From an uncultured Rickettsiales bacterium (GTDB taxonomy: Bacteria > Pseudomonadota > Alphaproteobacteria > Rickettsiales > JABIRX01), in contig CAXDRM010000002.1 in NCBI GenBank assembly GCA_963991775.1, positions 1 to 43,980 on the forward strand: a stretch of 43,980 nt of DNA, written 5' to 3'. Each line of letters opens with the position of its first letter. Within the stretch, counting starts at the first letter, position 1. This document shows positions 2,613 through 36,860 of this stretch, one piece after another. The notes beneath the pieces are model-generated. The model saw only the letters and a program-made list of their open reading frames with translations, had not been told where the DNA came from and made no database searches. Both the position numbers and the translations under genes were made by a program.

Positions 2613-2615
2613 AAG

Positions 2616-7793: not shown

Positions 7794-8037
7794 CGTCAAA
7801 AAAATAAATATCTAAAAAATTTGTCTTAAGAAATTTCCAGCCTCTAACTTTAAAATCTTAGACAAAGAAAATGCTAAGTGATTAGCAACATGAAATTTGA
7901 CGACAGCAACAACAGCACAGCACTTGTCTTAAAGTGTTTGCGAAAGTTTTAGAGTTGTAAAAGTTAGTAGCAACCATTCTTCTAAAATTGTTGTTGTTAA
8001 AAATCTGCAGCAGAATATATAAATATCACGGTAAATG

Positions 8038-8898
8038 TCAAGCTTTGCTTTGCTTAGCAGCTTTTACACTATTCATCATTAAGCAAGCAATAGTCATTGG
8101 CCCAACGCCACCAGGAACTGGAGTAATAGCTGCAACCTTATCTAACACCTCATCAAAGGCCACATCACCAACTAATTTTGCCTTGCCAGATCTTTCAATA
8201 CGGTTAATTCCTACATCAATAATTACAGCACCATCTTTAACATATTCTGCTGTAACAAATTCTGGCTTGCCTATTGCAGCTATTATAATATCTGCACTGG
8301 CAGCCTCTGCCTTAATATCTTTACTGCGTGAATGAAGCATTACTGTCGTACAATTTTCTTGTAGTAATAATTCAGCCATGGGGCGCCCTACTATATTTGA
8401 ACGACCTAGAATCACCGCTTTTTTACCAGAAAGATCTCCTAAATATTCTTTAAGCATTAATAAACATCCTTGCGGTGTACATGGTACTAGCGAATCTTGC
8501 CCTGTATATAATCTACCAGTATTTACTACATGAAAACCATCAACATCTTTTTTAGGATCAATAGCATTAATGATTTTATCTTTATCTATATGCTGCGGCA
8601 AAGGTAATTGCACTAAAATACCATGCACTGCTTCATCTTGATTAAGCTTGGTGATATGTTCTAACAGCTCGGATTCTGCTACATCTGCAGGTAGTAATAT
8701 TTCTTGCGAGTTAATGCCTAACTCTCGAGCTTTTTTATTTTTATTACCAACATAAACTTTACTTGCTGGATCATCTCCTACTAGAACTACTGTAAGGCCA
8801 GGAACTAAATTATGCTGATCTTTTAATGCAATACATTCTTGTTTTACTTGCTCGCATAATTTAGCAGCAAAAGCTTTACCATCTATTATTTTATTCAT
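8038..8898 (-). CDS. folD: Bifunctional methylenetetrahydrofolate dehydrogenase/cyclohydrolase
   Basis: 286-aa ORF with FolD motifs [23 protein letters not shown] and [10 protein letters not shown]. Confidence 0.9.
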
Positions 8899-8939
8899 AA
8901 AAACTCTGTAAGATTTATGAATATTATTTAGGTGAAATT

Positions 8940-11180
8940 TTAGAATTTTGCAACATATTCGAGCAGCGCCGCATGCTCAAAATCATTATTGCCAAGATAG
9001 CGTTGTTGATTAGTAACTAAATTAAATTTTAGCTCTCTATTTTTACCTAGATGCTTATAGTAAAAAATCTCATAATCATAAAATTCTATAGCACCCAAAT
9101 CAACTGTGAGACTATCAGTAATTACCCTACCATCATCAGTCAATCCCGTTGATATTACTAATTGAACTGCACCTTGTTCAATCTGCCAAGGACGTGCCAC
9201 TGAAAAACCCAATTTTTCCTTCGTATTTAGATTATAAACTGCACCTAAAGTAAAATTACTCGTAGTAAAATTGTTTGATGTAGTAATTAATGAATCTTGT
9301 TGTTCAGCTTCACTTAGTAAATAACCATATTTAATAAAATAGTTAAATTTAAGATTTTTTGAAGTTAAGGCTATATCAAAACTATGATTTTCTGCTGAAT
9401 CTGCACTCACAAAGCCTTCACTACCTGTAAAACCTAAAACACCATTCTCTTCATGATAAAAACTATGTGCAAAATTTATGGCAAATTTTTTAAATGATTT
9501 ATTTAAAGCATTAGAAAAACCATAATATTCATCATCAGAGGCTAAATTCGTTGCTCTAAAGAAGCTTGAAGTTAAGGCTAAATTCTTACTAGCTTGATAG
9601 GTCAAAGCAAAATTTTGACTATTATCTATATTATTGTCGTAATAGCTATTAAACGCTGTTTCGTTAGCAATATTAAAATTACTTAAGAAATCATATTGAT
9701 TAACTATATTTGATTGATGACTAGTAGCTGAGAAATTAAAAGCTAATTTGGGTGCAATATTTCCACTGAAAAACAAATTATCAAACTCAACATTTTGATT
9801 TTCTGTTTCAGGATTTTCAAAAATAAATTCTGCTTTACGGTCAGTAATATTATTAAAATTAAAAGCAAAATTATTACTATTAAAACCAATATTTTCTGCT
9901 TCTACATAATGATCTGTAAAGAAAAAATCCAAACCTCTACTATCATTATAATATTCTAATTTACTGATATAATCTGCTTTAAAATCACGGCCATATTTAT
10001 CATAAAACACACCTTGATTCAAAAAGTCTGTTACAGACTCACTTGAAAATAACGCCTGATAACTTGTAGGAATATTAAGCTCTGTATTATCATATTGATA
10101 GCTTTCACCAGTGCTTGATACTGAAAGTGAAATACCTTGATTAGTTACAGCATTTTCAAGATCCAACATGCCAGCTCCATAAACCGAGCTATCTGCAAAT
10201 ACTCCTGAACTATCTGCAGTATCTAACAAGATAGTAACGACTTGAGCACCAGTTAGGCTTGGCCAAGCTGACTGCAAAATTGCTGCAGCACCTGATACTA
10301 CAGGAGCTGACATTGAGGTTCCTGAATTTAAACCATAGCCGCCATTATTTGTAGTTGAATAAATATTAGTACCGGGCGCTGCAAGACAATTATTTATAGA
10401 GCCACAACTATCACTAAATGAAGCTAGTGAACCATTATCTGTAGCAACTACTGCTAGCATTTGGCCATTAAAGTCAAACGGATCATCACTATCATAATCC
10501 GCATTTCTAGCTGGGTAAGAAGGCTGAGTATCGCTATCATTACCTGCAGCAAAAACCATAACTATATTCTGGTTGCTAGAGATAATTTGCTCTATTTCAA
10601 AATTTACCAATGCAGAATCTACCGTATCCCCGTTATCATCTACAGTTCCCCAGCTATTATTAATTACTGTTGCTCCAGTATTTATAACATCTGCTGATAA
10701 ATCTCCTGTATAACTATCAGCAACAAAATTGACTGAAGCAATTTCAACACCTGGTGCAATACCATGCATACCTGAACCATTATATTCAGCTGCCACAATA
10801 CCTGCCACATGCGTACCATGCCCATCACTATCTACATTTGCGCCAGCAGAACTACTGCTAGAATTAAAATTATTATCTAAATCACTATGGCTTGCTAAAA
10901 CACCAGTATCTACAATTGCAACTGTTACACCATTTCCAGCCCAGTTTTTTTCATTATTAGCTAAAATTGCATAAGCATCATCTGCATTAACAGCGCTCAA
11001 AAAATTCTGGCCACCGTTGCTAGCATTAAAATATTCACTAGAAGAACTAAAATCTGAAGCGCTGCAAGAAGTGCCACATGGGCTGACGGTTGTAATATTT
11101 GCTCCTGAACCTCTGCTACCTCCTCCTCCTCCACATGAAATTAACAATAAAAAAATCAATAATTTATTAAGTCTTAACAT
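8940..11180 (-). CDS. Lipoprotein subtilisin-like (S8) serine protease autotransporter, NalP/SphB1-like architecture
   Basis: 746 aa. It has a signal peptide with lipobox LLISC followed by a Gly-rich linker ([10 protein letters not shown]). The catalytic triad motifs are [17 protein letters not shown] and [16 protein letters not shown]. The C-terminal ~300 aa are rich in alternating aromatic residues and end in ...LLEYVAKF, an OMP beta-barrel signature with terminal Phe. Confidence 0.75.
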
Positions 11181-11324
11181 ATTTTTAGTGAAGTTATTTT
11201 TTTATAATTAATTTTTACCATAACATTTTTTAAGACAAAATAATATAATTTTCTATTTGTTATTTCTGAGTAGAAATATTATTATCGCAAATCTTACAAA
11301 TAACAATTTATTACAGAGAATTTT

Positions 11325-12359
11325 ATGGATAAATCAAAAGCTTTAGAATCTGCATTGGCTCAAATAGAACGATCATATGGTAAAGGTTCAGTAATGAAGC
11401 TTGGTCAAACTGATACAGTTGATATAGCAGCAATTTCTACAGGTTCTATTTCTATTGATTGGGCTCTGGGTATTGGAGGCTTTCCTCGTGGTAGAATTAT
11501 TGAAATTTATGGACCTGAATCTTCAGGTAAAACTACATTAGCTTTAAGCGCAATTGCAGAAGCGCAAAGATCAGGAGGAACTTGCGCCTTTATTGATGCA
11601 GAACATGCTCTTGATCCTATTTATGCGCAAAAATTAGGTATTAATCTTGATGAGCTAGTCATTTCACAACCTGATACAGGTGAGCAATCTCTTGAAATTA
11701 CTGATACATTAGTTCGCTCTGGAGCAATTGATCTGATTGTTGTAGATTCTGTAGCTGCTCTGGTACCAAAAGCAGAATTAGAAGGTGATATGGGTGATAC
11801 TCATGTTGGTTTACAAGCGCGTTTAATGAGTCAGGCCTTACGTAAACTTACTGGCTCAGTTGCCAAAACTAATTGTATTGTAATTTTTATCAATCAGATT
11901 AGAATGAAAATTGGCGTTATGTTTGGCAACCCAGAAACTACTACTGGTGGTAATGCTCTTAAATTTTACTGCTCAGTAAGAATAGATATTCGTAGAAGCA
12001 CAGCTTTAAAAGATAAAGATGAAGTTATAGGTAACACCGCTAAAATTAAAGTGGTTAAAAATAAGGTTGCACCACCATTTAGATCAGTTGAAGTAGATAT
12101 TATGTATGGTGAAGGAATCTCTAAAACTGGTGAATTAATTGATCTTGGTGTCAGAGAAGAAATTGTCGAAAAATCTGGCTCTTGGTACTCTTATGAAGGA
12201 GAACGAATTGGCCAAGGTAAAGAAAATGCAAAAATCTTTTTAAAAGAAAATGCAGATATAGCTAATGATATTGAAGCTAAAATTAGAGCAAAATTAGGTA
12301 TTGGCGCTGAACAAGAACCAACGGCTAAAGCGGCAGATTCTGCTGAAAGTGCTGCTTAA
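11325..12359 (+). CDS. recA: Recombinase A
   Basis: 344 aa with Walker [10 protein letters not shown], the loop regions and the conserved N-terminus [26 protein letters not shown]. Confidence 0.97.
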
Positions 12360-12387
12360 TTTTTAGCGAACTGGCTTTTTTGAGAGA

Positions 12388-12491
12388 GCTGTGAATGTGC
12401 ATAAATATGCAAGCCGAGGCTTGTAGCGTTACATGAAACCTTACCAAGTGCTTCACGCTACAAGCCCGGTTCTGCGGACTAGATTAGAACC
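12388..12491. repeat. Palindromic intergenic element downstream of recA (mosaic, related to families A and B)
   Basis: There is a perfect 12-bp stem, GGCTTGTAGCGT (12418-12429) with ACGCTACAAGCC (12455-12466). A second hairpin is GGTTCT...AGAACC (12468-12491). The 5' part GCTGTGAATGTGCAT resembles family A ends, and CCCGGTTCT resembles the family B block. Confidence 0.6.
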
Positions 12492-12575
12492 TGAAAAATC
12501 ATCATAAATAGTAATATTTTATTTTACAATAAGTTTTTTTAAATTTACTTTTAGGTAAATTTATTACGTCGCACT

Positions 12576-14078
12576 ATGGAATATGGTATTAGTTATACTG
12601 TTGCTTTAACCGGTCTTAAAGCAAGAAAAATCATTGTACAAACCCACATTGAAAACACCTCACCTTACTTTAATATCGTTGGACTTGGCGATAAAGCAGT
12701 TAGTGAATCAAAAGAAAGAATCAGAGCAGCTTTAAGCTCAATTGGTATTAGCTTACCAGCAAAACGCATCATTGTGAATCTTGCACCTGCTGATTTACAA
12801 AAAGAAGGCAGCCATTATGATTTGGCCATTATTATTTCGTTACTTGCAGCTTTAAAATTAATACCTCAACAAGAAGCTAGTAAATATATTTTCTGTGCTG
12901 AATTAGCTCTTGATGCATCTATAAGCTCTGTTTCGGGCATTTTACCTGCTGCTATATTTGCTAATCAATTAGAGAAAGGCTTTATCTGTTCAAAGCATAA
13001 TGCACAAGAAGCAACTATCTCTGGCAATAATAACTTAATTTGTAGTGATTTTTTAACCGAGATAATCAAATTTTTAAAAGGTGAAAAATCAATTTTGCCG
13101 GTGCAAAATAAACTAGCTTTTAAAAAGAAAGAATTAAGTGATTTTAGCGAAGTAAAGGGCTTAGAATCATGTAAAAGGGCCTTAGAGATTGCTGCAGCTG
13201 GCAGACATAATGTTTTAATGATTGGCCCGCCTGGTGCAGGTAAATCAATGTTAGCTGAACGTTTTAAGTCAATATTGCCTGAATTAAGCGCAGCTGAACA
13301 GCTAGAACTTGCTACTATACAAAGTATTACTGGAGAATTTAACGATAAAGAATTTGCAATAGATATTCCTTTACGCTCACCGCATCATAGCGCCTCTTTA
13401 GTTGCATTAACTGGTGGTGGTAGCAAAGTTTCTCCTGGTGAAGTAACTTTAGCACATCATGGCATATTATTTTTAGATGAGTTACCTGAATTTAAAAGAA
13501 GCAGCTTAGAGGCTTTGCGCCAACCTTTAGAAAGTAAAGAGATTCATATAGCAAGAGCAGAAAAAACCATTACCTACCCTGCAAATTTTCAGTTAATTGC
13601 AGCCATGAACCCTTGTAAATGTGGCTATTTACAAATCCCGGAAAAAGCCTGTAACAAGGTGCCACTCTGCGCTAAAGATTATATGAAGAAAATTTCTGGC
13701 CCTTTATTAGAGCGCATCGATTTAATTTGCAAAATACCTTATCAAAAAACCAAACTTTTTACAAGTGATGCGAGTGCAGCTGAATCATCTGCACAAATTA
13801 GAAACAGAGTAAGTGCTGCACGTATGTTACAAAAAGATAAATTAGCAAATTTAAACTTGAATTATAACTCTGAATTATCTCTTAAAAATTTTGAAAATAA
13901 TCAAAATATTACAGCATCAGCTAAGGCTACTTTAGAAAATGCTATTGAAAGATATTTACTCTCCAATCGTGCAGCGCTACGCATTTTAAGAGTAGCACAA
14001 ACCATCGCTGATCTTGCAAAATCAGAACAACTAAAAGAAGAGCATATATTAGAAGCCTTAAATTATCGTTTGCATTAG
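12576..14078 (+). CDS. comM: YifB/ComM family Mg-chelatase-like AAA+ ATPase
   Basis: 500 aa with a Lon-protease-like N-domain (VGLGDKAVSESKERIRAAL, NLAPADLQKEG), Walker A GPPGAGKS and Walker B ILFLDELPEF. Confidence 0.85.
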   Translation: MEYGISYTVALTGLKARKIIVQTHIENTSPYFNIVGLGDKAVSESKERIRAALSSIGISLPAKRIIVNLAPADLQKEGSHYDLAIIISLLAALKLIPQQEASKYIFCAELALDASISSVSGILPAAIFANQLEKGFICSKHNAQEATISGNNNLICSDFLTEIIKFLKGEKSILPVQNKLAFKKKELSDFSEVKGLESCKRALEIAAAGRHNVLMIGPPGAGKSMLAERFKSILPELSAAEQLELATIQSITGEFNDKEFAIDIPLRSPHHSASLVALTGGGSKVSPGEVTLAHHGILFLDELPEFKRSSLEALRQPLESKEIHIARAEKTITYPANFQLIAAMNPCKCGYLQIPEKACNKVPLCAKDYMKKISGPLLERIDLICKIPYQKTKLFTSDASAAESSAQIRNRVSAARMLQKDKLANLNLNYNSELSLKNFENNQNITASAKATLENAIERYLLSNRAALRILRVAQTIADLAKSEQLKEEHILEALNYRLH

Positions 14079-14086
14079 AGACTATT

Positions 14087-14188
14087 AAGATTTTGACTTT
14101 GCTGTGCATTTGCATATCAGGAGCATTTATAAATAACCATTACGTCATTTATAAAGCGCAAGTAAATCCATAGTGAAGGCAAAATTTT
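14087..14188 (+). repeat. Family A palindromic interspersed repeat, copy A1
   Basis: The core GCTGTGCATTTGCATATCAGGAGCATTTATAAATAACC... matches copy A2 at 55 of 70 positions in my hand alignment (27 of the first 28). The imperfect terminal inverted repeats are AAGATTTTGACTT and AAGGCAAAATTTT. Confidence 0.7.
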
Positions 14189-14292
14189 AATTACTATTAG
14201 ATTACAATTTTAAAATATAGCTCAGTTCCTCTTGAATGTAGTAAGCTTTGCTTTATCATAATTCACACCAAAGTTCTATCTTTATAAGAAAT

Positions 14293-14808
14293 ATGCAGCA
14301 CAATAATCTTATCGATAAAATTATCCGCGTTAATCATGCTGGTGAATATGGCGCAAAAAGAATTTATCAAGGTCAAATAGCCTATACTAAGAATCCAGCG
14401 ACTAAAAAACTTTTAAAAGAAATGCTTGAGCATGAAGCTGAACATCTGCAATATTTTGAGCAGCAAATTAAAGAGCGCAAGGTGCGTCCTACTGCTTTAT
14501 TTCCGCTGTGGCATGCTCTAGGTTATGGCTTAGGTGCCGTTACTGCAATGCTTGGTGAAAAAACTGCTATGGCATGTACTTATGCTGTTGAAGAAGTTAT
14601 TGAAGGGCACTATCAAAATCAACTTGATAAGCTAGATAAATCTGAAGCAGCGCTCAAAAAAAATATCAAAAAATTCCAAGCTGAAGAAGTACATCACCGC
14701 GATATTGCTACTGAACATTCTGCAGAAGAAGCTTTTGGCTTCAGCATCTTTAAAAATTTAGTTGCAAAAACTTCTAAAACAGCAATTTGGCTTTCTGAGA
14801 GATTTTAA
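14293..14808 (+). CDS. coq7: Demethoxyubiquinone hydroxylase (Coq7/Cat5 family di-iron carboxylate protein)
   Basis: It has RVNHAGEYGAKRIYQGQ and two ExxH motifs (EHEAEHL, AEEVHHRD). The ORF track starts at a TTG at 14248; the ATG at 14293 (MQHNNLIDKIIRVNHAGE) is preferred. Confidence 0.8.
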   Translation: MQHNNLIDKIIRVNHAGEYGAKRIYQGQIAYTKNPATKKLLKEMLEHEAEHLQYFEQQIKERKVRPTALFPLWHALGYGLGAVTAMLGEKTAMACTYAVEEVIEGHYQNQLDKLDKSEAALKKNIKKFQAEEVHHRDIATEHSAEEAFGFSIFKNLVAKTSKTAIWLSERF

Positions 14809-14809
14809 C

Positions 14810-15925
14810 ATGCAAATTGATAATAAAATTAAAATTCGTAAAACAGGCAAACTTAAAACTGCGCATCTTACGGCAACATTAATAATCATCTTTAGCTTAT
14901 TATGGATTTTAAGTGGTAAGCTAAAAGATAAAGAAATCCCTGACTTTAACGCAGCAAAACCTCAAACCGTTTTTAAAGTAGTAACTGAAAGCTCACAAGC
15001 TATAGAAAAATATCGTGAATTATTTTTTTATGGCAAAGCATTCGCTGCACAAAAGGTTGAATTAAAATCTGAAATTGATGGTAAAATTGCCAAGATAATA
15101 AAAGAGGATGGCAACTATCTAGCAGCAGGTGAAGAAATTATTGCTCTAGATAATAGACAATATGAAACTAGCTTTAGACAATTTAAAGCAAATTTAGCAG
15201 AAAAAAAACTAACTTTACGTTCTACCAAAAATCTGGCCCGTAAAAAGCTTGCATCAAAGGCTCAACTTGCAGTAGCTCAGGCAGATTTCGAAAAAGCTCA
15301 AGCAGATCTTAAACTTGCAGAAATAGATTTAAAAAACACTAAAATTATTGCTCCTTTTGCAGGCAAGATAGAAAAAATCTATATTGAAGAAGGTGAAGTA
15401 ATTAAAAAATTTGATACTCCGTTAGTACAGTTTTTAAATGATAATAAAATTTTAATTGAATCATATATCCCAGAAAAATTAATTTTTGCTATTGATGCTA
15501 TAGAAAATGTCACTGTAAATTTTTCTGACGAAATCATTAAAAAAGCTGAGTTAAATTATATTGCAAATTTAGCTGATCCTGAAACTAAAACCTACAAGAT
15601 AGAACTAGCTGTCGACAATATTGATGGTTTAATTAAAGATGGTATGACTGCTAAGGTTACTTTTTTAACTAATCCAGAAGTTGCTCATAGGATTAAAGCC
15701 TCCACTTTAACTATTGATGAGGCTGGTAATATTGGAGTAAAACATATTACAGCAGAAAATCTAGTTATCTTTAGTGAAGTAAAAATCATAGCTGAAGAAG
15801 GCGAGGAGATTTATGTCTCAGGCTTACCAAATAGCGCTGAAATAATCACTGTTGGGCACAGCTTCGTTAAAATTGGTGACCAAGTACAAATTAAGCAAGA
15901 TAAAGTTTCTGATGAGCCTAATTGA
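14810..15925 (+). CDS. RND efflux periplasmic adaptor (membrane fusion protein, HlyD family)
   Basis: It has an N-terminal TM anchor, a coiled-coil hairpin region (KLASKAQLAVAQADFEKAQADLKLAEIDLKNTKIIAPFAGKI) and beta-barrel domains. The ATG at 14810 is 1 nt after the coq7 stop, so the ORF-track start at 14762 is an upstream extension. Confidence 0.75.
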   Translation: MQIDNKIKIRKTGKLKTAHLTATLIIIFSLLWILSGKLKDKEIPDFNAAKPQTVFKVVTESSQAIEKYRELFFYGKAFAAQKVELKSEIDGKIAKIIKEDGNYLAAGEEIIALDNRQYETSFRQFKANLAEKKLTLRSTKNLARKKLASKAQLAVAQADFEKAQADLKLAEIDLKNTKIIAPFAGKIEKIYIEEGEVIKKFDTPLVQFLNDNKILIESYIPEKLIFAIDAIENVTVNFSDEIIKKAELNYIANLADPETKTYKIELAVDNIDGLIKDGMTAKVTFLTNPEVAHRIKASTLTIDEAGNIGVKHITAENLVIFSEVKIIAEEGEEIYVSGLPNSAEIITVGHSFVKIGDQVQIKQDKVSDEPN

Positions 15926-18900
15926 TAATCTGATAGCTAGACGTAAAGCTTTTACTTTTTTATTTATAGTACTGGTTTTTCTTGGTTTTAAATCATATCA
16001 GAATATCCCGCGTGAAGAATATCCAGATGTACAAATTCCTATAGTATTTGTTTCACTTGATTATGAAGGTATTTCTCCTGAGGATGGTGAAAAGCTTTTA
16101 CTAAAACCTGTAGAAAAAGAAGTTCAATCCATAACTGGCGTCAAGAAAATGACTTCTTATGCTATTGAGGGTAAAGCCTCTGTAGTTTTAGAATTTGATG
16201 CAGGTTTTGATAGCGACAAAGCTATTGATGATGTTAGAGAAAAAATAGATCTAGCTAGACCAGAATTGCCTACAGATATTGATGAGCCTAAAATAAAAGA
16301 AATAATCTTTAGTGAATTCCCAGTACTAAATGTTATTTTAACTGGCGCGGTGAATGAAAGAGCTTTAGTAAGAATTGCGCGTAATTTACAAGATAGAATT
16401 GAAGAAATCTCCGAAGTATTAGAAGTCAATATTGCGGGTGATCTTGAAGAGACTGTAGAAATAGTCATTGATCCTATAAAGCTTGAAGCATTTGGCATAT
16501 CTTTTTCTGTCATTGAAAGAATCCTTAATAATAATCGCCTAGTTACAGCTGGAGCATTAATTTCAGGCTCAAGCCGTTATGCAGTTAAGATACCAGGCTT
16601 ACTTGAAGACCTTGATGATATTTTAGAACTACCATTAAAATCTAATGGTGATCGCGTGGTTAAAGTTGCAGATATTGCTGAAATTAAAAAAAGCTATAAA
16701 CCAAGAACCTCAATTGCTCGGGTTAATGGACAAACTGCTGTAACCTTAGAAGTTTCAAAACGCTCTGGTGAAAATGTAATTGCGACAGTTAGAAAAGTTA
16801 GAGAGCTAGTAGAAATAGAACGTAAATTCTTACCTGAAACTTTAGAAATTATCTTTGCTCAAGATTCATCTGCACGTATTATGACCTCAAATGATGATTT
16901 GCAAAATAACATTATTTTTGCAGTACTCTTAGTTTTAATCACTTTGCTTTTTACCGTAGGTTTAAAACCTGCATTTTTAGTAGCGCTAAGTATTCCTGGT
17001 ACCTTTGTTTTAGCAGCACTTATTTTAAAGCAGCTTGATATTAGTTTGAATATTGTGGTGCTATTTTCACTTATTCTCTCAGTTGGCCTTTTAGTTGATG
17101 CAGCTATTGTAATTACTGAATATGCAGATCGTGAATTAAGCAAACATAATTCTGGTATCAAAGCATTTTCTGCTGCTGTAAAAAGAATGGCTCTGCCTAT
17201 CATAATTTCTACCATCACTACTTTAATAGTATTTATGCCTTTGCTTTTTTGGCCAGGTGTAGTTGGTCAATTCATGCTCTTCATTCCGCTTACCTTAATA
17301 ATTACCCTATCCTGCTCTTTATTAATGGCTTTAATCTTTGTACCAATTATTGGCTCTTGGTCTAGTAAAGATAAAGAAAGCGACTTACGCTCAAAATTCG
17401 CTAAAAATTTTGTAAGAGCCTATGGCAAGCTGGTAACTAAAGTCCTACATTTTCCAGTAATTTTTGCTTTAATAGTCTTTATGGCACTGATTAGCTCAAT
17501 TTATAGCTTTGCAAAATTTGGTAAAGGTTCTGAGTTTTTTCCAGAGATTGAACCTGACAATGCATCTATTAATATTAGAGCTAGAGGAAATCTATCTATC
17601 TATGAAAAAGATGAAATCGCTCAAAAAGCCGAAGAATTAATGGGCCATGATAAAAAGCAAATTACCACAATATATTCACGTATTGGTGATACAGGCAGTA
17701 ATCAAGGTGATAATGCAGGACCAGCAGACACTATTGCAGCTTTACAATTAGAGCTTAATGATTGGCGCTACCGAGATAAGGCTAAAGATATTTTAGCTGA
17801 TCTTGGTACAAAACTTTCAGAGATGTATGGTATTATTATCGAGGCTGACCAAGAAAAGAAAGGACCAGCTTCAGGAAAAGATATTCAAATAGAAGTTAGC
17901 TCGCGCAATACTAAAATAATAGATGTTAATGCATTGAAACTTGTTGAATTTATGCAAGCTTCAGAGCTATTTAAAGATATTGAAGATTCACGACAATTAC
18001 CCTCAATTGAATGGAAATTTGACGTTGATCGCGAATTAGCTGAACAATCTGGTTTAACTGTTAGTGAAATAGGTAATTATATGAAATTAGTAACTAATGG
18101 TATTGTAGCTACTAGTTATCGTCCAGATTATAGTGACGATGAAGTTGATATAGTAATTAGATTTCCAGAAGAATACCGTAATATTTCACAATTTGATTTA
18201 TTAAAAGCAATTTTACCAAATGGCGATGCTGTACCAATTACTAGTTTCATAACCCAAACTGCTCAGCAAGAAGTTAATAAGATTGATCGTATAGATGGTT
18301 ATAGAGTTGTAACCATTAAAGCCAATATTACTGAAGGAACTTTAACTAATATAGGTGTTAAGCAAATTGCTGAATGGTTAGCAGCTGGCAATTTATCGCC
18401 AGAAGTGAATGTTAAATTTGGTGGAGAAGACGAAGATAGCAAAGAAACTGGAGCATTTTTACAAAGTGCCTTTGGTATTGCCTTATTAGTAATGGCCCTA
18501 ATCTTAGTTATTCAGTTTAACTCTATCTATAAAATGATCATTATTATAAGTGCGGCTTATCTTTCTACTGCTGGAGTGTTAATTGGTTTATTAGTAAGCA
18601 ATAGCCCTTTTGGTATTGTAATGTGTGGTGTCGGTATTATCTCACTTGCTGGTATAGTGGTTAACAACAATATTATCTTTATTGATACTTATGATAGATT
18701 AAGAAAAAACAGCATTAGCCCGGTAAGAGCTATTGTCTCAACTGCCACAAAACGTCTTAGACCTATTTTGCTTACTTCTATTACTACTGTCTTAGGTTTA
18801 TTACCTATGGTTTTTAGTATGAATATTAATTTCTTTTCTAGGGAGGTTTATTTTAATTCACCATCAAGTGATTGGTGGCAACAATTATCCACTACAATTG

Positions 18901-19619: not shown

Positions 19620-19696
19620 GGGCCAGTAGCTCAGTTGGTTAGAGCACGTCGCTCATAACGATGTGGTCGTGGGTTCAAGTCCCTCCTGGCCCACCA
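19620..19696 (+). tRNA. tRNA with CAT anticodon (elongator Met or lysidine-modified Ile2), encoded CCA
   Basis: I folded the cloverleaf by hand. The acceptor stem is GGGCCAG/CTGGCCC, the D arm GCTCAGTTGGTTAGAGC, and the anticodon stem-loop CGTCG-CTCATAA-CGATG. The T arm GTGGG-TTCAAGT-CCCTC has one U-U mismatch. The variable and T regions (TGGTCG.GGGTTCAAGTCC) resemble tRNA-Ile2. It lacks the initiator features of three G-C pairs in the anticodon stem and a 1-72 mismatch. Confidence 0.85.
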
Positions 19697-19714: not shown

Positions 19715-20158
19715 CTACCAATGTTTTAGACCTTGAGCACCCCATTTATTTGGCGCCATTGGATTACCAAAAATAGAGGCATCTTCAAGTCTAAGTGGAT
19801 AACCTTGACCCGATGCTTTTGGTGTCATGCCCGCTTCTCTTAAAGTTGATACCGCAACATGTCGACAAAAAATCATGGCAGATGACCAACCATTTAGATA
19901 ATAGGTATTATTATCAATCACCATCTCCTTATCCTTATTATATTTATAAAAAGTTTTATAATAATCATTGGCAAATCCTGTTGATAAACCAGTTTCACAA
20001 CCATCTAACCAACCTTGTTGATAATCAGGCGGACCATCCGGCATTTGCTTAAATAATCTACTTTTTGGCGCAAAAATACTATCCTTGGTTGGATTACATG
20101 CGCCTAATAATAAGCTAAAAATAATAATAAATATGTTAAATAATTTTACTTTGAACAT
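19715..20158 (-). CDS. Lipoprotein L1 with one copy of the uncharacterised two-Cys module
   Basis: 147 aa with a signal peptide and lipobox LLGAC. The module runs PDGPPDYQQGWLDGCETG ... YYLNGWSSAMIFC. It overlaps the stop of L2 by 13 nt. Confidence 0.7.
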   Translation of the reverse strand: MFKVKLFNIFIIIFSLLLGACNPTKDSIFAPKSRLFKQMPDGPPDYQQGWLDGCETGLSTGFANDYYKTFYKYNKDKEMVIDNNTYYLNGWSSAMIFCRHVAVSTLREAGMTPKASGQGYPLRLEDASIFGNPMAPNKWGAQGLKHW

Positions 20159-20646
20159 TGAAATATACCTTTACATCCGACAAACATTGTATTCCACCAT
20201 GCCTCACCTTGACCTGGTAATCTTACCCCACCTCCAAAATTTAAATCAACACCTTGTGCAAGAGGATATGCAACTGTTGGGTTACCAGCTTTACTTTTGT
20301 GAGATTCTGGTCTTAGCCAAAACCATTTATGCTCAGGCTCAATAAATGCATCTATTGGCTCAAATGCATAACGATTAACAATATGAAAGCAATATAAGTA
20401 ACCTCTTCGCCAAGCATCATAATATTCATCATCAGCCATTAACTCACCATCTTGTTCATATCTAAAAAACATCTTTTGAAAACTATTTCCACGTGAGTAC
20501 ATTGCTGTATTACAACCTTGTCTAGCACCTTTTACCAAGCCATATGAACCATATTTAGGCAAGTCAATGTTGGCAGGATATAGCACATATTTTGAGCATG
20601 AAGTTAAGGCTGATAATGTTAATAATAAGATAAGTATTTCTTTCAT
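20146..20646 (-). CDS. Lipoprotein L2 with one (more diverged) copy of the two-Cys module plus a C-terminal extension
   Basis: 166 aa with lipobox ALTSC. The module runs GLVKGARQGCNTA ... FFRYEQD ... YYDAWRRGYLYC. There is an additional C-terminal Cys pair (GCKGIFQC). Confidence 0.7.
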   Translation of the reverse strand: MKEILILLLTLSALTSCSKYVLYPANIDLPKYGSYGLVKGARQGCNTAMYSRGNSFQKMFFRYEQDGELMADDEYYDAWRRGYLYCFHIVNRYAFEPIDAFIEPEHKWFWLRPESHKSKAGNPTVAYPLAQGVDLNFGGGVRLPGQGEAWWNTMFVGCKGIFQCSK

Positions 20647-20654
20647 ATATAAGC

Positions 20655-21275
20655 CTATAGAAAATTTCTTCTTCCTGACTCCATAAGGTCATAGTAACGA
20701 TGACAATACCAGAAGGCAGTTTTCCAACCTGCATTATATTTTGGGTTAAAACGATCACCCTCGATATAACGAGCATCTTTAAAAAAGCGGTATACAAATT
20801 TATGCTTAGTTTTACCATTTGCACCTTTACCGCTGTTACAACCATCTACCCAACCACGACGATATTCTTCTGGCCCTGGCGGTGCATCTGATAATAGGTT
20901 TTTTCTAATACTGCCTGGCATAGCTTTATTTTGTAGACTCCAACTAACTCTAAAAAATGAGGCTGGCCTACCAATTGCCATTGATTTCATCCATAGATAA
21001 CAGTAGGTAAAAGCATCTTGCCAGGTTCTACGATATAATAGTGATCTATTGTTAAGTACCGGATGTTTATAGTAACCTTGGAAAGTACTTGCGAATAAAT
21101 TATATTGATTCTCAGACATTCCAGAATTACAGCCATCAGTAAATCCCGCCTGGAACTCAGGCGGTCCAGGTGGTGGAGTTTTTTTAGCCCATACAGGTTT
21201 AGACAAAAAATTTATCATCTTATTACTACATGAACCTAAAGCTAGAAATGTTACCAAAAATAATATTTTCCACAT
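20655..21275 (-). CDS. Lipoprotein L3 with two tandem copies of the two-Cys module
   Basis: 206 aa with lipobox ALGSC. The modules run PPGPPEFQAGFTDGCNSG ... YRRTWQDAFTYC and PPGPEEYRRGWVDGCNSG ... YNAGWKTAFWYC. Confidence 0.75.
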   Translation of the reverse strand: MWKILFLVTFLALGSCSNKMINFLSKPVWAKKTPPPGPPEFQAGFTDGCNSGMSENQYNLFASTFQGYYKHPVLNNRSLLYRRTWQDAFTYCYLWMKSMAIGRPASFFRVSWSLQNKAMPGSIRKNLLSDAPPGPEEYRRGWVDGCNSGKGANGKTKHKFVYRFFKDARYIEGDRFNPKYNAGWKTAFWYCHRYYDLMESGRRNFL

Positions 21276-21281
21276 AAATTC

Positions 21282-21614
21282 TTACGCAACAACGTTATCA
21301 AGTAAGTACAGACAATGCTCTTCTCCATCAAAGAAACCAGCTGCATAGACTCTATTTTGAGTCAATAACCAACCATCAAATTCAGGTTTTATATTTCTAA
21401 GCATACCCTGTGCTGCAATACCAAATGAGGATTTACAACCATCTCTAAAACCCTTAGTGTAATCATCATCACCATCAGGTAGACCTCTGGCCATATAGGG
21501 ACGACCTCTCAAACCCCAATCCCATGATTTAGGCATACTCCACGCTTCATGCACACATGAGCTTAAAGTTAAGAAAATGATTGATAATGTAAAAAAACGT
21601 CTGATTTTGCTCAT
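21282..21614 (-). CDS. Lipoprotein L4 with one copy of the two-Cys module
   Basis: 110 aa with lipobox TLSSC. The module runs PDGDDDYTKGFRDGCKSS ... VYAAGFFDGEEHC. There is a 6-nt gap to L3. Confidence 0.7.
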   Translation of the reverse strand: MSKIRRFFTLSIIFLTLSSCVHEAWSMPKSWDWGLRGRPYMARGLPDGDDDYTKGFRDGCKSSFGIAAQGMLRNIKPEFDGWLLTQNRVYAAGFFDGEEHCLYLLDNVVA

Positions 21615-21710
21615 TTACCGCCTAAAATTAAAATGCACGTATATTATAGCATATTTTTAGGCTTAGAGCAAATGCAAGGCAGGTTTGAAGCTAAAGAAAG
21701 AAAACCAGGC

Positions 21711-22475
21711 TTAGAAACGATCCAACTTATATGCTAGAACGCAAGTTTTTGAATTTTCATAGTTTGCGTAGGTAGCAAGATCTGTAAGGCAGCTACCACT
21801 TACGCCTAGAGGCGCATAATTGCTACCAATAAAGGCTATAAGATTGCCTTCTGAAGGATGAGCATCATCTATTTTTTTATCGTAGCGTAACGCATCTTTG
21901 GGCAGCAAATTTCCTAACAAAGGCATATTGCTTACATCTGCAGCAATGTCTAAACCACCTACTACTAAATAATTTCTTTCTGCAACTGCAATATCAAGGC
22001 TAGAGCCAGATTTTCTAGAAAAACTACTATAGTGATGAGCCGCATATCTCCCGTAATTATCATAATTTGTTTTTGGAAAAATATCTTCATCTGTAGGAGT
22101 AGAAGAGCTTGATATAGTAAATTCTGGGTTTACAATATTAGCCGCTTTAAGATGCAACCAAAATTTTGAAAACTCAGCGGGGCTCTCAATTAAACCATCG
22201 CCATCACCCGAACAAATATCCGAGCCACCATTATCTCCTAAACAATTATTACCAAAAAATTGGGCTGCTTTAGCAAAATCACCAGGATATTGTCTATATG
22301 TACTTATGAAACTAACTACCGAAGTTTTGTATTTTTCAAGATTAGAAATATCTTTATTAAGAGCTGTAGTATTTAAAAGTCTGCTCCCTGCTACTATACC
22401 AACAGCGAGTAAACCAATAATAATCAAAGTAACTGATAATTCTACTAATGAAAAAGCTCGGTTATTTAACATCAT
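21711..22475 (-). CDS. Type IV pilin / pseudopilin-like protein P1 (prepilin-type N-terminal domain)
   Basis: 254 aa. It has a short basic leader MMLNNRA, then FSLVELSVTLIIIGLLAVGIVAG (Phe+1, Glu+5, hydrophobic helix). A C-terminal Cys pair lies 17 residues apart (GSCLTDLATYANYENSKTCV), like a pilin D-region. It is a paralogue of P2 at 28078. Confidence 0.75.
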   Translation of the reverse strand: MMLNNRAFSLVELSVTLIIIGLLAVGIVAGSRLLNTTALNKDISNLEKYKTSVVSFISTYRQYPGDFAKAAQFFGNNCLGDNGGSDICSGDGDGLIESPAEFSKFWLHLKAANIVNPEFTISSSSTPTDEDIFPKTNYDNYGRYAAHHYSSFSRKSGSSLDIAVAERNYLVVGGLDIAADVSNMPLLGNLLPKDALRYDKKIDDAHPSEGNLIAFIGSNYAPLGVSGSCLTDLATYANYENSKTCVLAYKLDRF

Positions 22476-22519: not shown

Positions 22520-23959
22520 CTACTTACCAGTCATGATTCTATCAACTAACTGCTGCGTAGTAGGTATAAAACCATCAGCATAATATGGATCAGCAGCAAA
22601 TTTAAAGGCATTATGACCAGCAAACATTAGCTCATTATCAACATTACCATCTACAATAATATTTTGTAGAGTTTTTTGAATACAGAAACTTCTAGGATCA
22701 GGTTTCTTACCTGTAGTATAATTATGCTCTTCTGAACTATACCAATTACTAAATTTACAAGCAGTTAAACAACCCATGCAATCAGCTTGATCCTTTTTAA
22801 TTTCCATAGCTTTTTCAGGAGATACAAAAATAAGCGTGCTATCTTCAGTTTTCATCACCTCGGTAAAGCCTTGGCTTTTCCAATTTTCAGCTAATTTAGC
22901 AGAGTCTTGATCTGTAAAAAATTGACGATTTCTTCTACCATAAGTAACTGCAACATTATGCTCTGCTGTTGCCTCACTACTATATGCAACTTGACGATCA
23001 GATCTAGCTCGCAATTCTTTGATAAAATCATTATTGACTGCTGATGAATAAAAACCTGTTGGGCTGAAACGGTTTAAAAAAACATCACCTTCTTTTAAAG
23101 TAAGTAGCTTTTGCTTCCATTCTTCAGGAGCAGGGTTCTCTTTAGTTACAATTGGCCTTGTACCATATTGAAAAGCAATTTTACCAATTTTTTTATCATC
23201 TAACCATTCAGCGTAATCTTCTAAGTGCCAAACTCCTCCTGCCATGATAATTGGTACATCTTCAAGACCCACCTCATTCATAAAAGCACGAATTTCAACA
23301 AGACGTGGATATGGATCTTGAGCTTGATTAGGATCTTCAGCATTAGAAAGACCATTATGCCCTCCTGCTTTCCAAGGATCTTCATAAACTACCCCACCAA
23401 TATATTGTGAAAATTTTGAGTAAGATCTTTTCCATAAAGCTCTAAATGCACGCATTGATGAAACAATTGGATAATAAAAGAAATCATATTTTTCTGCGAG
23501 AGGCCCCAAACGATAAGGCATACCTGCACCACAAGTGATACCATGAATTAAGCCTTTTGCTTTTTCCATAACACCATGAATGATACGCTCTGTACCAGCT
23601 GCTTCCCAAAGTAGATTCATATGGATTCTACCGGTATTTTTTGCAATATCTGCAGCAATACGTGCTTGATCAATAGCAGCTTTAATTGAATGCTGCATTA
23701 ATTCTTCATGTTTTTCTAAACGAGTTTTACCTTTGTAAATAAGAGGTATTGCCTCTCCATTTGCATCGATTCTTTCAGCATTTACGCCTGAAAATGTTCC
23801 AACTGCTCCTGTGGCAGCAAAATGGCCTGCACTAAAGCCGTTACTCACTCCAACACCCTTACCACCTTCAATAATTGGTAAAGTTTCTAGCCCAGAAAGA
23901 GCTAATGATTTTAATCCTGATAACAAAATAGATTCACCTGTATGATTTCGATTTAACAT
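22520..23959 (-). CDS. Nitronate monooxygenase / 2-nitropropane dioxygenase family FMN oxidoreductase (long form)
   Basis: About 480 aa with TIM-barrel FMN motifs (PIIEGGKGVGVS, ITCGAGMPY, IIMAGGVW) and a C-terminal Cys motif CMGCLTAC. The start is either the ATG at 23974 or the one at 23959. Confidence 0.6.
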   Translation of the reverse strand: MLNRNHTGESILLSGLKSLALSGLETLPIIEGGKGVGVSNGFSAGHFAATGAVGTFSGVNAERIDANGEAIPLIYKGKTRLEKHEELMQHSIKAAIDQARIAADIAKNTGRIHMNLLWEAAGTERIIHGVMEKAKGLIHGITCGAGMPYRLGPLAEKYDFFYYPIVSSMRAFRALWKRSYSKFSQYIGGVVYEDPWKAGGHNGLSNAEDPNQAQDPYPRLVEIRAFMNEVGLEDVPIIMAGGVWHLEDYAEWLDDKKIGKIAFQYGTRPIVTKENPAPEEWKQKLLTLKEGDVFLNRFSPTGFYSSAVNNDFIKELRARSDRQVAYSSEATAEHNVAVTYGRRNRQFFTDQDSAKLAENWKSQGFTEVMKTEDSTLIFVSPEKAMEIKKDQADCMGCLTACKFSNWYSSEEHNYTTGKKPDPRSFCIQKTLQNIIVDGNVDNELMFAGHNAFKFAADPYYADGFIPTTQQLVDRIMTGK

Positions 23960-24056
23960 TCTATATAAGCACATTTTAAGGTCAAATTATTAATTGATCT
24001 TAATAAGTCAATTAACGTATAATGACGGCTTACATGTAAAATGTCTTATGATAAAA

Positions 24057-27991: not shown

Positions 27992-28067
27992 GCCGGAATA
28001 GCTCAGTTGGTAGAGCATTCGCCTTGTAAGCGACAGGTCGGGAGTTCGAGTCTCTCTTCCGGCACCA
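27992..28067 (+). tRNA. tRNA-Thr (TGT anticodon), encoded CCA
   Basis: Hand-folded cloverleaf. The acceptor stem is GCCGGAA/TTCCGGC, the D arm GCTCAGTTGGTAGAGC, the anticodon loop CTTGTAA and the T arm GGGAG-TTCGAGT-CTCTC. Confidence 0.9.
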
Positions 28068-28077
28068 TTTTTTTAGG

Positions 28078-28827
28078 TTGTTGATTTTGTCTAAAAAAGC
28101 TTTTTCACTTGTCGAACTTTCTCTTGTCATTGTAATTATTGGCTTGTTAATTGGTGGTATATCTGCTGGTAAACAAGTAATCGAAAATGCCAAATTACGC
28201 GCTACTATTGCTAAAATTAAGCAATATGAAGTGGCTTTAAATAGTTTTTATACGCAATATAAAAAACTTCCTGGTGATATTGATAATGCTACTGATTTTT
28301 GGTCAGGCACTCAAAATGGTGATGCAGATTTTCAGATAGATGCACCATGCACTGGTGGTCCAAATGGTTTGGAATCATTAATAAGTTTAGAGCATCTTAG
28401 CCTAGCTGAGTTAATTACTGGTTCATTTACCGGTATTGGTGTTACTGATGGCGCAGAAAGTGAATTAGCAGCTCTTGGCACAAATGTTGATAATTTTCCT
28501 TATGCAGGTTCTGCTGCTATTTTTCATTATCTTACAAGCTATACTTTATATAGCTCAGGCCCAACTATCACTACCAATAAAAATGTCTTAAATATTGGTG
28601 CACCAAGTGCTAGCTGCCCTACTCTTGATACACCTATTCTTTCTAGCGTAGAAGCTTATATGATTGATCAAAAGCTAGATGATCTAAATCCTGGCACTGG
28701 TTATATTCTAAGTGGCGCAGCTACAACAGATTGCGCCGAGACTGTAAATTCAATTTACGAATATAATGTAGATTCAGATGAAACTTGCCTAATTTATTAT
28801 GTTTTAGAGGGGCTTGATTTGCTATAA
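28078..28827 (+). CDS. Type IV pilin / pseudopilin-like protein P2 (paralogue of P1)
   Basis: 249 aa in the ORF track. It has a leader ...SKKA, then FSLVELSLVIVIIGLLIGGISAG. It shares Y-x-x-[YL]-PGD and D-x-K-[IL]-DD motifs with P1. A C-terminal Cys pair lies 18 residues apart (TDCAETVNSIYEYNVDSDETCL). There is no ATG start: the candidates are TTG at 28078, 28081 or 28087, and the last would give the leader MSKKA. Confidence 0.65.
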   Translation: MLILSKKAFSLVELSLVIVIIGLLIGGISAGKQVIENAKLRATIAKIKQYEVALNSFYTQYKKLPGDIDNATDFWSGTQNGDADFQIDAPCTGGPNGLESLISLEHLSLAELITGSFTGIGVTDGAESELAALGTNVDNFPYAGSAAIFHYLTSYTLYSSGPTITTNKNVLNIGAPSASCPTLDTPILSSVEAYMIDQKLDDLNPGTGYILSGAATTDCAETVNSIYEYNVDSDETCLIYYVLEGLDLL

Positions 28828-28906
28828 CTAATCTTCTTTATTTGCACAAATATTGCATATATGATATAGTATTACAAATAAAAGATCAAATATTGCTAGG
28901 TATATT

Positions 28907-29458
28907 TTGCGCAACAGAATAAATCATTTTTTAACAGAGTTAAATGATTGGTGTAATACTGAGCTAAATTATAATGCAATTAATGCTAATAATATTGGGA
29001 GAGCTTATTTAGACATATACAATGCATTTTATAACTCAGAAATTTGCAATCAAAATGTAGATTTAGATTTGTCATCATATAATTTACGGCATGTGCCATT
29101 TTCAATATTATATATCAGTAGGATTGAGTCACTAAATATTGATAATAATCACTTTAATCAAGAAGAGCTCCAACAATTTTATAATAGATTGGATAATGTA
29201 TCTGCCATTAATAATCATTTTCTTAGTAATAATTATGAATCTTTATCAATTGCTGTACAGCCAGATGATAGTTCTGTTGAATTCGAGACTTCTTCATGGA
29301 GCTCATCATCCGTAGCTACTATAGTGTCTCAAGAATCGCAAAATAGTAATTACAACACATCTAATAACCCATATAATATTAGGCAAATATCAGGATCAGT
29401 TTGGCAAGATAGAGTATTAGAAGATCAATTTATTCTTAGGAGGCATAGAGAGAGATAA
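28907..29458 (+). CDS. Small leucine-rich-repeat protein with Ser/Asn-rich tail (effector-like); hypothetical
   Basis: 183-aa ORF with 2-3 LRR units (VDLDLSSYNLRHVPFSILYISR, IESLNIDNNHFNQEELQQFYNR, LDNVSAINNHF). A Trp/Cys-containing cap region precedes them and a low-complexity S/N tail follows. It has no ATG or internal Met codon; the only candidate start is a TTG at 28907 with an AGG 8 nt upstream. Confidence 0.45.
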   Translation: MRNRINHFLTELNDWCNTELNYNAINANNIGRAYLDIYNAFYNSEICNQNVDLDLSSYNLRHVPFSILYISRIESLNIDNNHFNQEELQQFYNRLDNVSAINNHFLSNNYESLSIAVQPDDSSVEFETSSWSSSSVATIVSQESQNSNYNTSNNPYNIRQISGSVWQDRVLEDQFILRRHRER

Positions 29459-35459: not shown

Positions 35460-36860
35460 ATGCAAATTGTACAAAATAAAAAATTTAATAGCTTAATTAT
35501 CTGCTTTGGCCTGTTTTTTCTTATTTTAGGCTTGCCTGACAAATTTTTTGCCTCAGAAAAAGTTCAAACTATCTTGGCTATCGGAGCATTAATGTTCTCG
35601 CTCTGGGTAACTGAAACTTTTCCTATAGCTATAACCTCCTTAATACCTATCCTACTTTTTCCTGTGATGGATGTAATGGACATTAATAAAACTGCTAGCT
35701 ATTACGGCAGTAAGATCATCTTTTTATTTTTAAGTGGCTTCATCCTCGCTTTGGCCTTGGAAAAATGGCATCTCAATAAAAGAATTGCTCTCAATATTTT
35801 AAAATTAACAGGTAATGGACCACGCAATATTTTGCTTGGTTTTATGCTTGCTACTGCCTTACTTAGTATGTGGATCAGCAATACTGCAACTACAGTGATG
35901 ATGCTACCTATAGCGCTTTCAATGATTTATGCCATCGATGATAACCCTGATCCTAATTTCTCTAAAACCTTAATGATTGCTATAGCTTATGCTGCTTCAA
36001 TTGGAGGTATCGCTACAATTATTGGTACACCGCCAAATGCAATATTAGTAAATTACTTAAGTGAATCACAAAATTATGATATTAGCTTCTTTTTTTGGTT
36101 TGTAAGATTTTTACCTCTAACCATCATTGTACTGATGGGTGTCTGGGCCTTTCTAGCTTTCTTTAAGCTTAAAAATACTGCAATGCCTACTTCAAAAACT
36201 ACAGAAGTTATTGATAAAGAGCTTAAAAAATTAGGAGCCATGTCTTATGAAGAAAAGCTAGTAATGAGTATTTTTGCTTTCACAGCTCTGAGCTGGATTT
36301 TTAAAGGCTTACTACCTTTTAAAATTGATGATGTAGCAATTGGTATTTTCGGTGCAGCCTTAATGTTTATCGTGCCTTGTAAAAACTCTGATGATTACTT
36401 GCTTAATTGGGGTGATACAAAAAATCTTTCTTGGGGAACCTTACTACTTTTTGGTGGTGGTTTTGCTTTAGCTAAAGGTATGGAGAATTCTGGCTTTATT
36501 GATATTATTGGTAATTACATCGAGCATATCTCGCAAGGTAAATTAATTATTGCGCTACTCGTCTCAATTTTTATTGCGATCTTTCTTACAGAATTTATGA
36601 GTAATTTAGCCTTAACTGCAATTATTGTACCAGTACTTGCTGCAATTTCGATTACTTATACCGGTAATCCTTTGGCTTTATCTATGCCAGCTGCAGTTGC
36701 TACCTCATGCGCTTTTATGACGCCAATGGCCACACCGCCAAATGCCATTGTATTTTCTAGCGGCTTTATCAAAATGAAAGATATGATTAAAACTGGTATT
36801 TTTTGTAATCTCTTCAGCTTTGTTACCATCTTTATCTATGCTAAGCTGGTGATTAATTAG
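35460..36860 (+). CDS. DASS/SLC13 family divalent-anion:sodium symporter (sulfate or dicarboxylate)
   Basis: 466 aa and polytopic. The two hairpin-tip motifs are SNTATTVMMLP and the related second-half region (MSNLALTAIIVP, TPPNAIV). There is a strong SD (AAGGAG) upstream of the ATG at 35460. Confidence 0.8.
   Translation: MQIVQNKKFNSLIICFGLFFLILGLPDKFFASEKVQTILAIGALMFSLWVTETFPIAITSLIPILLFPVMDVMDINKTASYYGSKIIFLFLSGFILALALEKWHLNKRIALNILKLTGNGPRNILLGFMLATALLSMWISNTATTVMMLPIALSMIYAIDDNPDPNFSKTLMIAIAYAASIGGIATIIGTPPNAILVNYLSESQNYDISFFFWFVRFLPLTIIVLMGVWAFLAFFKLKNTAMPTSKTTEVIDKELKKLGAMSYEEKLVMSIFAFTALSWIFKGLLPFKIDDVAIGIFGAALMFIVPCKNSDDYLLNWGDTKNLSWGTLLLFGGGFALAKGMENSGFIDIIGNYIEHISQGKLIIALLVSIFIAIFLTEFMSNLALTAIIVPVLAAISITYTGNPLALSMPAAVATSCAFMTPMATPPNAIVFSSGFIKMKDMIKTGIFCNLFSFVTIFIYAKLVIN

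Follow-up and report, generated by a model that had tools for sequence, protein, structure and literature searches.

We analyzed a 43,980-nt stretch of DNA from an uncultured Rickettsiales bacterium (positions 1 to 43,980 of contig CAXDRM010000002.1, assembly GCA_963991775.1), referred to here as the window. Near its middle, a gene for a type IV pilin-like protein, P1, stands directly before an array of four genes for small lipoproteins, L1 to L4. P1 occupies positions 21711 to 22475 on the reverse strand and consists of a 254-amino-acid open reading frame (ORF) that belongs to a large family of ~260-amino-acid pilins, hereafter the P family. The gap between P1 and L1, on the same strand, is 96 nt. 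On the other side, 44 nt upstream of P1, lies an NMO-family (FabK-like) gene (22520 to 23974, reverse strand; PF03060, E = 3.1e-11), which is not a pilus gene; a weak promoter-like site at 22545 to 22517 overlaps its 3′ end. The original prediction, which was made from the letters of the window, had placed P1 at the head of a combined pilin-lipoprotein module. We examined what kind of pilin P1 is, what the lipoproteins are, and how far the two belong together.

The N terminus of P1, as translated from the ORF, reads MMLNNRAFSLVELSVTLIIIGLLAVGIVAG. A 7-residue leader, MMLNNRA (positions 22455 to 22475, reverse strand), with Arg at −2 and Ala at −1, is followed by the hydrophobic α1-N segment FSLVELSVTLIIIGLLAVGIVAG (22386 to 22454, reverse strand), which carries Phe at +1 and Glu at +5. 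In the numbering of the ORF, these positions are Ala7 (−1), Phe8 (+1), and Glu12 (+5), and the predicted prepilin peptidase site falls between Ala7 and Phe8. A class III signal calls for a short hydrophilic leader that ends in Gly or Ala, a hydrophobic residue at +1, and Glu at +5, and P1 has each of these; the α1-N columns are invariant or nearly so in family alignments A2 and A4. Two prepilin models also recognized P1 above their cutoffs, PF07963 (N_methyl) at 21.4 bits (cutoff, 21.2) and TIGR02532 at 21.6 bits (cutoff, 16.3). The prepilin signal described in the original prediction, including Ala at −1, was therefore borne out in full, and so was the C-terminal Cys pair. P1 has cysteines at residues 78, 88, 229, and 245, and the last two delimit a D-region-like loop (21741 to 21791, reverse strand); in an alignment of 50 family sequences each shows at least 90% conservation, and a Cys229-Cys245 disulfide is predicted. 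Residues 89 to 97, SGDGDGLIE (22185 to 22211, reverse strand), match the family motif NG[DN]G[DN]GxI. In the same alignment G90 does not vary, conservation of G92 and G94 reaches at least 90%, and the GDGDG loop may possibly bind Ca. By those sequence features that can be tested, P1 is a genuine type IV pilin-like gene with a class III signal.

We defined the P family through alignments A1, A2, and A4. A word-indexed homologue search with P1, which covered 5.8 billion clusters, yielded three relatives at 28 to 33% identity and no orthologue above 36% identity, and it left the impression of a rare protein. An exhaustive profile search corrected this impression by uncovering thousands of family members. 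The profile, built from P1, its paralogue P2, and the three relatives and scored against 1.84 billion cluster representatives, matched 17,865 of them at an E value of ≤1e-3 and 5,481 at an E value of ≤1e-30. Nearly all of the matches are single and full length and lie in proteins of 240 to 290 amino acids, so the size of P1 is a family trait. Members carry no Pfam domain besides N_methyl. They share the pilin helix, the motifs Y-x3-LPGD, NG[DN]G[DN]GxI, and ID-K-DDG-P-G, and two C-terminal cysteines. P1 and P2 match the profile over their full length (233.7 and 261.8 bits, respectively) and carry the invariant motifs. The P family is very large, unnamed, and without a domain model for its head, and P1 is a new member.

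Position −1 of the P family is occupied by either Gly or Ala. Among the top ~150 representatives, Gly was found in 104 of 152 and Ala in 48 of 152; in loci derived from a genome scan, for which a 5-sequence alignment was used, there were 62 Gly and 8 Ala residues. Copies of both kinds share one locus in the Athabascaceae metagenome-assembled genome (MAG) UBA6187 (locus L021; −1 residues A, A, and G) and again in Novosphingobium sp. B1 (L026; A, A, and G). Because the two residues coexist in these loci, a single prepilin peptidase must process both. The literature is divided: cleavage after either Gly or Ala at −1 is accepted in one paper (PMC3244431), and a review treats Gly(−1) as invariant in bacteria and Ala as atypical (PMC4471445). 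P-family genes occur as singletons amid housekeeping genes or in tandem arrays of 3 to 10 copies, and many experimentally verified Gram-negative pilins are encoded outside biosynthetic operons (PMC3244431). Three oddities had been attributed to P1, namely, Ala at −1, its large size, and a window free of pilus machinery. All three are present, but they are normal in the P family rather than unusual.

A confident AlphaFold2 (AF2) model of P1, built on the 50-sequence family alignment (pLDDT, 83.8; pTM, 0.81), has a helix at residues 10 to 60 and a mixed α/β head of four β strands and three helices, which is the architecture of a pilin. The best Foldseek matches of this model in the PDB were type IV pilins, but they were weak (Clostridioides difficile PilA1, E = 0.047; CofA, E = 0.14), with TM scores of 0.33 to 0.47 for the best matches. 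When the family profile was compared with the PDB, Neisseria PilE was matched at an E value of 4e-9 over residues 10 to 95, including a shared WPGD motif. P1 resembles Neisseria PilE and Pseudomonas PilA in its short basic leader, Phe at +1, Glu at +5, hydrophobic α1-N segment, Y-x3-(W/L)PGD motif opening the αβ loop, and C-terminal Cys pair. It differs from these type IVa pilins in its length (254 amino acids versus ~150 to 160 for type IVa major pilins), in Ala at −1, in a head that lacks a confident structural match, and in the absence of adjoining pil genes. With CofA of enterotoxigenic Escherichia coli (ETEC) and PilA1 of C. difficile, the best Foldseek matches, P1 shares an oversize head; however, the structural match is weak, the 7-residue leader is of the IVa and not the IVb type, and sequence likeness is confined to the helix.

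We scanned the ORFs of at least 90 amino acids in the 44-kb window and found no prepilin peptidase, T2SSE, T2SSF, or secretin, in agreement with the absence of pilus machinery reported for it at the outset. Elsewhere, P-family genes do lie beside such machinery. A Woeseiaceae MAG (L041) carries a P-family member in a cluster with an MshEN-T2SSE ATPase and T2SSF. This compact cluster (positions 127 to 12003 of L041; also seen in L046 and L055) comprises MshEN-T2SSE, T2SSF, four genes without a Pfam match, a sigma-54 activator with a GAF domain, and two prepilins, one of them P-family-like. The P-family-like pilin of these MSHA-like or type IV pilus clusters scored 113 to 117 bits, and its place inside all three clusters shows that MshE-type machinery employs members of the family; the Woeseiaceae pilin is embedded in its machinery cluster, whereas P1 stands alone. 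On a 172-kb Rickettsiales MAG contig, MshEN-T2SSE and T2SSF genes lie ~6.5 kb from a P-family gene (P0003). Type IV pili have been reported in basal Rickettsiales (Mitibacteraceae and Athabascaceae, including UBA6187) and in aquatic lineages (PMC9352585, PMC10847448), and we found P-family genes in UBA6187 (L021 and L043).

Some P-family members are publicly annotated as "type II secretion system protein," and GspG shows a weak likeness to P1 over the N-terminal 60 residues, which raises the alternative that P1 is a GspG-like pseudopilin of a type II secretion system and not a pilus subunit. The GspG model TIGR01710 indeed gave weak N-terminal matches to P1 (E = 0.091) and P2 (E = 8.4e-4), and the acidic GDGDG loop of P1 presumably resembles the Ca site of GspG. 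These matches nonetheless scored 12.8 bits for P1 and 19.4 bits for P2, where the cutoff is 88.85, and aligned approximately residues 6 to 65, the N-terminal helix alone; scores so far below the cutoff rule out P1 as a GspG equivalog. Type IVa pilins ranked far above GspG (E = 0.093) in the PDB profile search, gspHIJK-like minor pseudopilins were not found adjoining P1, and where machinery adjoins P-family genes its ATPases carry the MshEN domain of the MshE/PilB type. We consider a pseudopilin role for P1 very unlikely.

Full-length P-family members came mainly from uncultured Rickettsiales-like and other Alphaproteobacteria, and a few came from Nitrospira, Bdellovibrionales, and the Delta-, Beta-, and Gammaproteobacteria. 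Tandem arrays of 5 to 10 P-family genes were seen in uncultured alphaproteobacterial and Rickettsiales MAGs (L023, positions 1 to 8941; L016, 2330 to 7755; L039, 5089 to 9950), and these arrays suggest a pilin repertoire that is both large and variable. In Novosphingobium sp. B1 (L026; NZ_FWXL01000004.1), three tandem P-family genes at positions 4048 to 16682 are flanked by genes for a TraG-like coupling protein and a MobA/MobL relaxase and, on the other side, by Abi-like, ArdC, and integrase genes. These flanking genes indicate that the trio is carried on an integrative mobile element of a cultured bacterium.

The window itself holds a second family member. P2 (28087 to 28827, forward strand), a paralogue of P1, probably starts at the TTG codon at 28087, which is likelier than 28078; from this codon its leader is MSKKA, followed by Phe. 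Aligned over its full length, P2 shares 30% identity with P1 (E = 2e-26), and, as had been noted earlier, it likewise has Ala at −1. The P2 gene starts 20 nt past a tRNA-Thr gene. Downstream of it, in the segment from 27992 to 29458 (forward strand), is a 183-amino-acid ORF (28907 to 29458) with a leucine-rich-repeat-like stretch and no family match. A search for att-like direct repeats near P2 and tRNA-Thr and near P1 gave nothing convincing. Metagenome contigs revealed 13 population single-nucleotide polymorphisms (SNPs) in P1, of which 7 are nonsynonymous and 8 are bunched at 21927 to 21989; the NMO-like gene (22520 to 23974) has 7 SNPs, 1 of them nonsynonymous, and none were listed for the L array (19715 to 21614).

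These differences in variation could be taken to mean that P1 is an orphan copy, in decay or without function, that a rearrangement or a mobile element left behind. The share of nonsynonymous changes (7/13 in P1, 1/7 in the NMO-like gene, and none in the L array), the lack of any orthologue above 36% identity among the 5.8 billion clusters, and the mobile-element location of the P-family copies in Novosphingobium sp. B1 would all be compatible with decay. The P1 ORF is, however, intact in all variants seen and keeps the family-invariant residues, namely, E+5, P64-G65-D66, G90, D199, K201, D203, P207, G210, and both C-terminal cysteines, and raised amino acid variation is equally typical of exposed pilins. 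That P1 is a functionless relic strikes us as extremely improbable.

Beyond the 96-nt gap, the array consists of L1 (21282 to 21614; 110 amino acids; lipobox LSSC with Cys20 and two further cysteines), L2 (20655 to 21275; 206 amino acids; LGSC; two L domains), L3 (20146 to 20646; 166 amino acids; LTSC), and L4 (19715 to 20158; 147 amino acids; LGAC), the last gene, all on the reverse strand. The arrangement described in the original prediction, a pilin gene followed after 96 nt by four proteins with lipoboxes, was thus confirmed. A tRNA-Met gene (19620 to 19696, forward strand) is convergent with the end of the array and is the same neighbor as in a relative (L008). L1 to L4 are mutually paralogous and contain five two-Cys L domains in all, the middle two of which are fused as L2 in the clade of the window and form two separate genes in a distant clade. 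Disulfides within the L proteins and sorting of L1 to L4 to the outer membrane are both predicted. Neither Pfam nor NCBIfam assigned a family to L1 to L4 or to the L proteins of a distant array. AF2 gave a weak model of L2 (pLDDT, 64), with a helical hairpin and a Cys pair per domain, and Foldseek found no PDB match for it. A pilotin-like (PulS/OutS) identity, suggested by a resemblance, was dropped in view of the weak L2 model and the empty Foldseek search.

In layout, with one pilin-like gene and then four small exported proteins, the locus is like gspG-gspHIJK and fimU-pilVWXE. The four followers are unlike gspHIJK and pilVWXE in that they have lipoboxes and not class III signals, a predicted helical-hairpin Cys-pair fold, and a candidate promoter of their own. 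N_methyl did not match any of L1 to L4, and the class III signals and pilin folds that the followers in a minor-pilin operon would have were not found. With no class III signals in the followers and no conserved synteny, the locus is not a minor-pilin operon.

A metagenome scan with an L1 alignment retrieved 42 loci, across which the gene order of the L array is conserved, and the contigs of L2 homologues (~45 to 56% identical) keep the four-gene order. Dozens of aquatic metagenome contigs carry L arrays (L005, L008, and L091 to L132), usually with a GT4 glycosyltransferase gene before and nuoL after the array. The arrays fall into three groups. In the clade of the window, L1 is 56 to 64% identical (57 to 64% for the L1 orthologues in L005, L008, and L091 to L097), there are four genes with the fused L2, and a divergent fabD lies upstream in every relative with readable upstream sequence. 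In the distant clade, L1 is 30 to 43% identical, there are five single-domain genes, and the 5′ end of the array is usually overlapped by the GT4 glycosyltransferase gene, with nuoL after the array. A third, monophyletic group (L102, L103, and, from the genome scan, L049) has a Laminin_G_3-like (LamG) prepilin gene before L1, overlapping it or 3 to 34 nt away. A neighbor-joining tree of L1 placed the window inside the fabD-type clade and the LamG-prepilin group as sister to the GT4 group.

The 96-nt gap between P1 and L1 contains a candidate promoter for the L array (21643 to 21671, reverse strand) that consists of TTGCTC, a 17-nt spacer ending in TGc (extended −10), and TATAAT. A simple promoter scanner did not list this element because its −35 sequence matches at only 3 of 6 positions. 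The element nevertheless aligns upstream of L1 in the pilin-less relatives L005, L008, L091, and L095, where fabD is the divergent neighbor, and this conservation implies that the L array of the window retains its ancestral promoter. In the other direction, we examined ~50 loci with full-length P-family genes, and only the window has an L gene nearby. Among 84 loci fetched by a pilin match, of which ~50 carry a full-length P-family gene, L-like genes were present in L049 and L081 only, in neither case with a full-length P-family gene. Synteny between P1-like and L-like genes is therefore not conserved, and by the criterion set in the original prediction the module idea fails for P1. Together with the divergent fabD of close relatives and the conserved gap promoter, these results speak against the proposal that P1 heads a pilin-lipoprotein module.

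The explanation that best fits these data, to which we assign a probability of about 0.72, is that P1 is a type IV pilin-class subunit of a large family, that L1 to L4 make up an operon apart from it, which is conserved independently and has a promoter of its own, and that the two became adjacent by a lineage-specific rearrangement. The steps by which P1 would act are drawn from established type IV filament biology. The P1 preprotein would insert into the inner membrane, where MMLNNRA would be cut off after Ala(−1) by a PilD-type prepilin peptidase, the gene for which would lie in another part of the genome. Mature P1, with Phe1, Glu5, a long α1 helix, a disulfide-stapled α/β head, and the GDGDG loop, would then polymerize into a filament or prime one, driven by a PilB/MshE-type ATPase and a PilC-type platform protein whose genes would also lie elsewhere. 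P1 and P2 would be two among several scattered alternative subunits. L1 to L4 would be made as their own operon from the promoter in the 96-nt gap, and the adjacency of P1 would reflect a lineage-specific rearrangement rather than a pilin-lipoprotein machine.

Several observations weigh against this explanation. The 44-kb contig shows no peptidase or assembly genes for this organism, and Foldseek searches of the PDB gave no confident structural match for the globular head of P1. No terminator was detectable between P1 and L1, so read-through cotranscription is possible, and a run search for the P1-L region returned DNA metagenomes only and no RNA runs. A different prepilin, of the LamG type, heads the L array in the sister clade (L049, L102, and L103), and two prepilin-L adjacencies exceed expectation if pilin-like genes make up ~0.5% of regional genes.

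The last points lead to the alternative that P1 and L1 to L4 constitute one envelope module, in which, for example, a short pilin-like stalk or a periplasmic scaffold would be anchored, capped, or chaperoned by the disulfide-stapled lipoproteins and all five genes would be cotranscribed at least by read-through. The adjacency of P1 and L1 is real: independent contigs in four marine metagenome runs span the junction, which excludes an assembly artifact. (An apparent joint skipping 1413 in two runs, considered as a possible deletion, was dismissed as the product of 22- to 34-nt cross-matches to the GW-DGC motif of foreign L genes.) The two genes are also on the same strand, 96 nt apart, with no terminator detected between them. 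In the independent clade of L049, L102, and L103, which are Rickettsiales-like MAGs, the LamG prepilins resemble P1 in having a class III signal (KKAFSLVELSVTILIIG in L049) and in standing directly upstream of homologous L genes, here a five-gene array. No other pilin-like ORF was found in ~268 kb of L-array flanks, which places the two independent adjacencies beyond naive chance. A further case is L081, from a high-GC alphaproteobacterial MAG, in which (positions 5696 to 13962) a lone L-like lipoprotein, GPPEYKLGWEDGCDSG, is encoded ~2 kb upstream of three pilin-like genes, two of them very large (274, 869, and 812 amino acids).

Other evidence speaks against such a module. In the window's own clade, it is the divergent fabD and not a pilin gene that lies upstream of the array in every relative with readable sequence, and most distant-clade arrays are coupled to the GT4 glycosyltransferase gene. 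The L1 promoter is conserved whatever gene stands upstream, and ~50 other full-length P-family loci have no L genes. The two pilins that adjoin L arrays have unrelated globular domains; the prepilins of L049, L102, and L103 differ from P1 in their Laminin_G_3-like C terminus, in a spacing of 3 to 34 nt or an overlap that makes them truly operonic, and in their five-gene array beside nuoL. Moreover, P-family genes favor tRNA genes, synteny breakpoints, and mobile elements, which makes an accidental adjacency likelier than a uniform model implies. We regard a single module of P1 and L1 to L4 as unlikely. The broader idea that class III-signal proteins and the five-domain L set build an undescribed joint envelope structure in Rickettsiales-like bacteria draws on two or more independent recruitments of a prepilin to stand before the first L gene, from the P family here and from LamG prepilins in L049, L102, and L103; we find it unlikely, slightly more so than the module at this one locus. 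A degree of functional affinity of the L module for class III-signal proteins is nevertheless possible.

The remaining scanned ORFs of the window encode cysNDIJHG, folD, a subtilase, recA, comM, COQ7, an RND pump, ArsC, mutS, IMPase, dapF, gyrB, map, purL, tolB, and mlaEF, all of them housekeeping genes or genes with no relation to pili or secretion, and one ORF, of 183 amino acids, matched nothing in the scan. A full set for assimilatory sulfate reduction (cysN, cysD, cysI, cysJ, cysH, and cysG plus a sulfate symporter) is encoded at 343 to 7799 and 35460 to 36860. Sulfate assimilation is listed as a further trait of basal Rickettsiales (PMC9352585, PMC10847448), and cysNDIJHG and the small purL of the window are compatible with affiliation to a basal, free-living Rickettsiales lineage.

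Taking P1 as a pilin-class subunit that is separate from the L operon, what looked like a pilin-plus-lipoprotein hybrid resolves into two separate and more tractable items, a prepilin family and the L operon. The more original of our results are the P family with its frequent Ala(−1) and the unannotated L operon; the recurring but nonobligate adjacency of pilin and L genes is a modest lead, not a result. The L operon supplies a conserved, unannotated set of lipoproteins with predicted disulfides, which comprises five L domains and occurs in the same lineages as the P family. The frequent natural occurrence of Ala(−1) in the P family bears on the textbook claim that Gly(−1) is invariant in bacteria. 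Finally, free-living and basal Rickettsiales-like lineages, whose pili have been discussed as a means of attaching to hosts or prey, appear to draw their pilins mainly from the P family.

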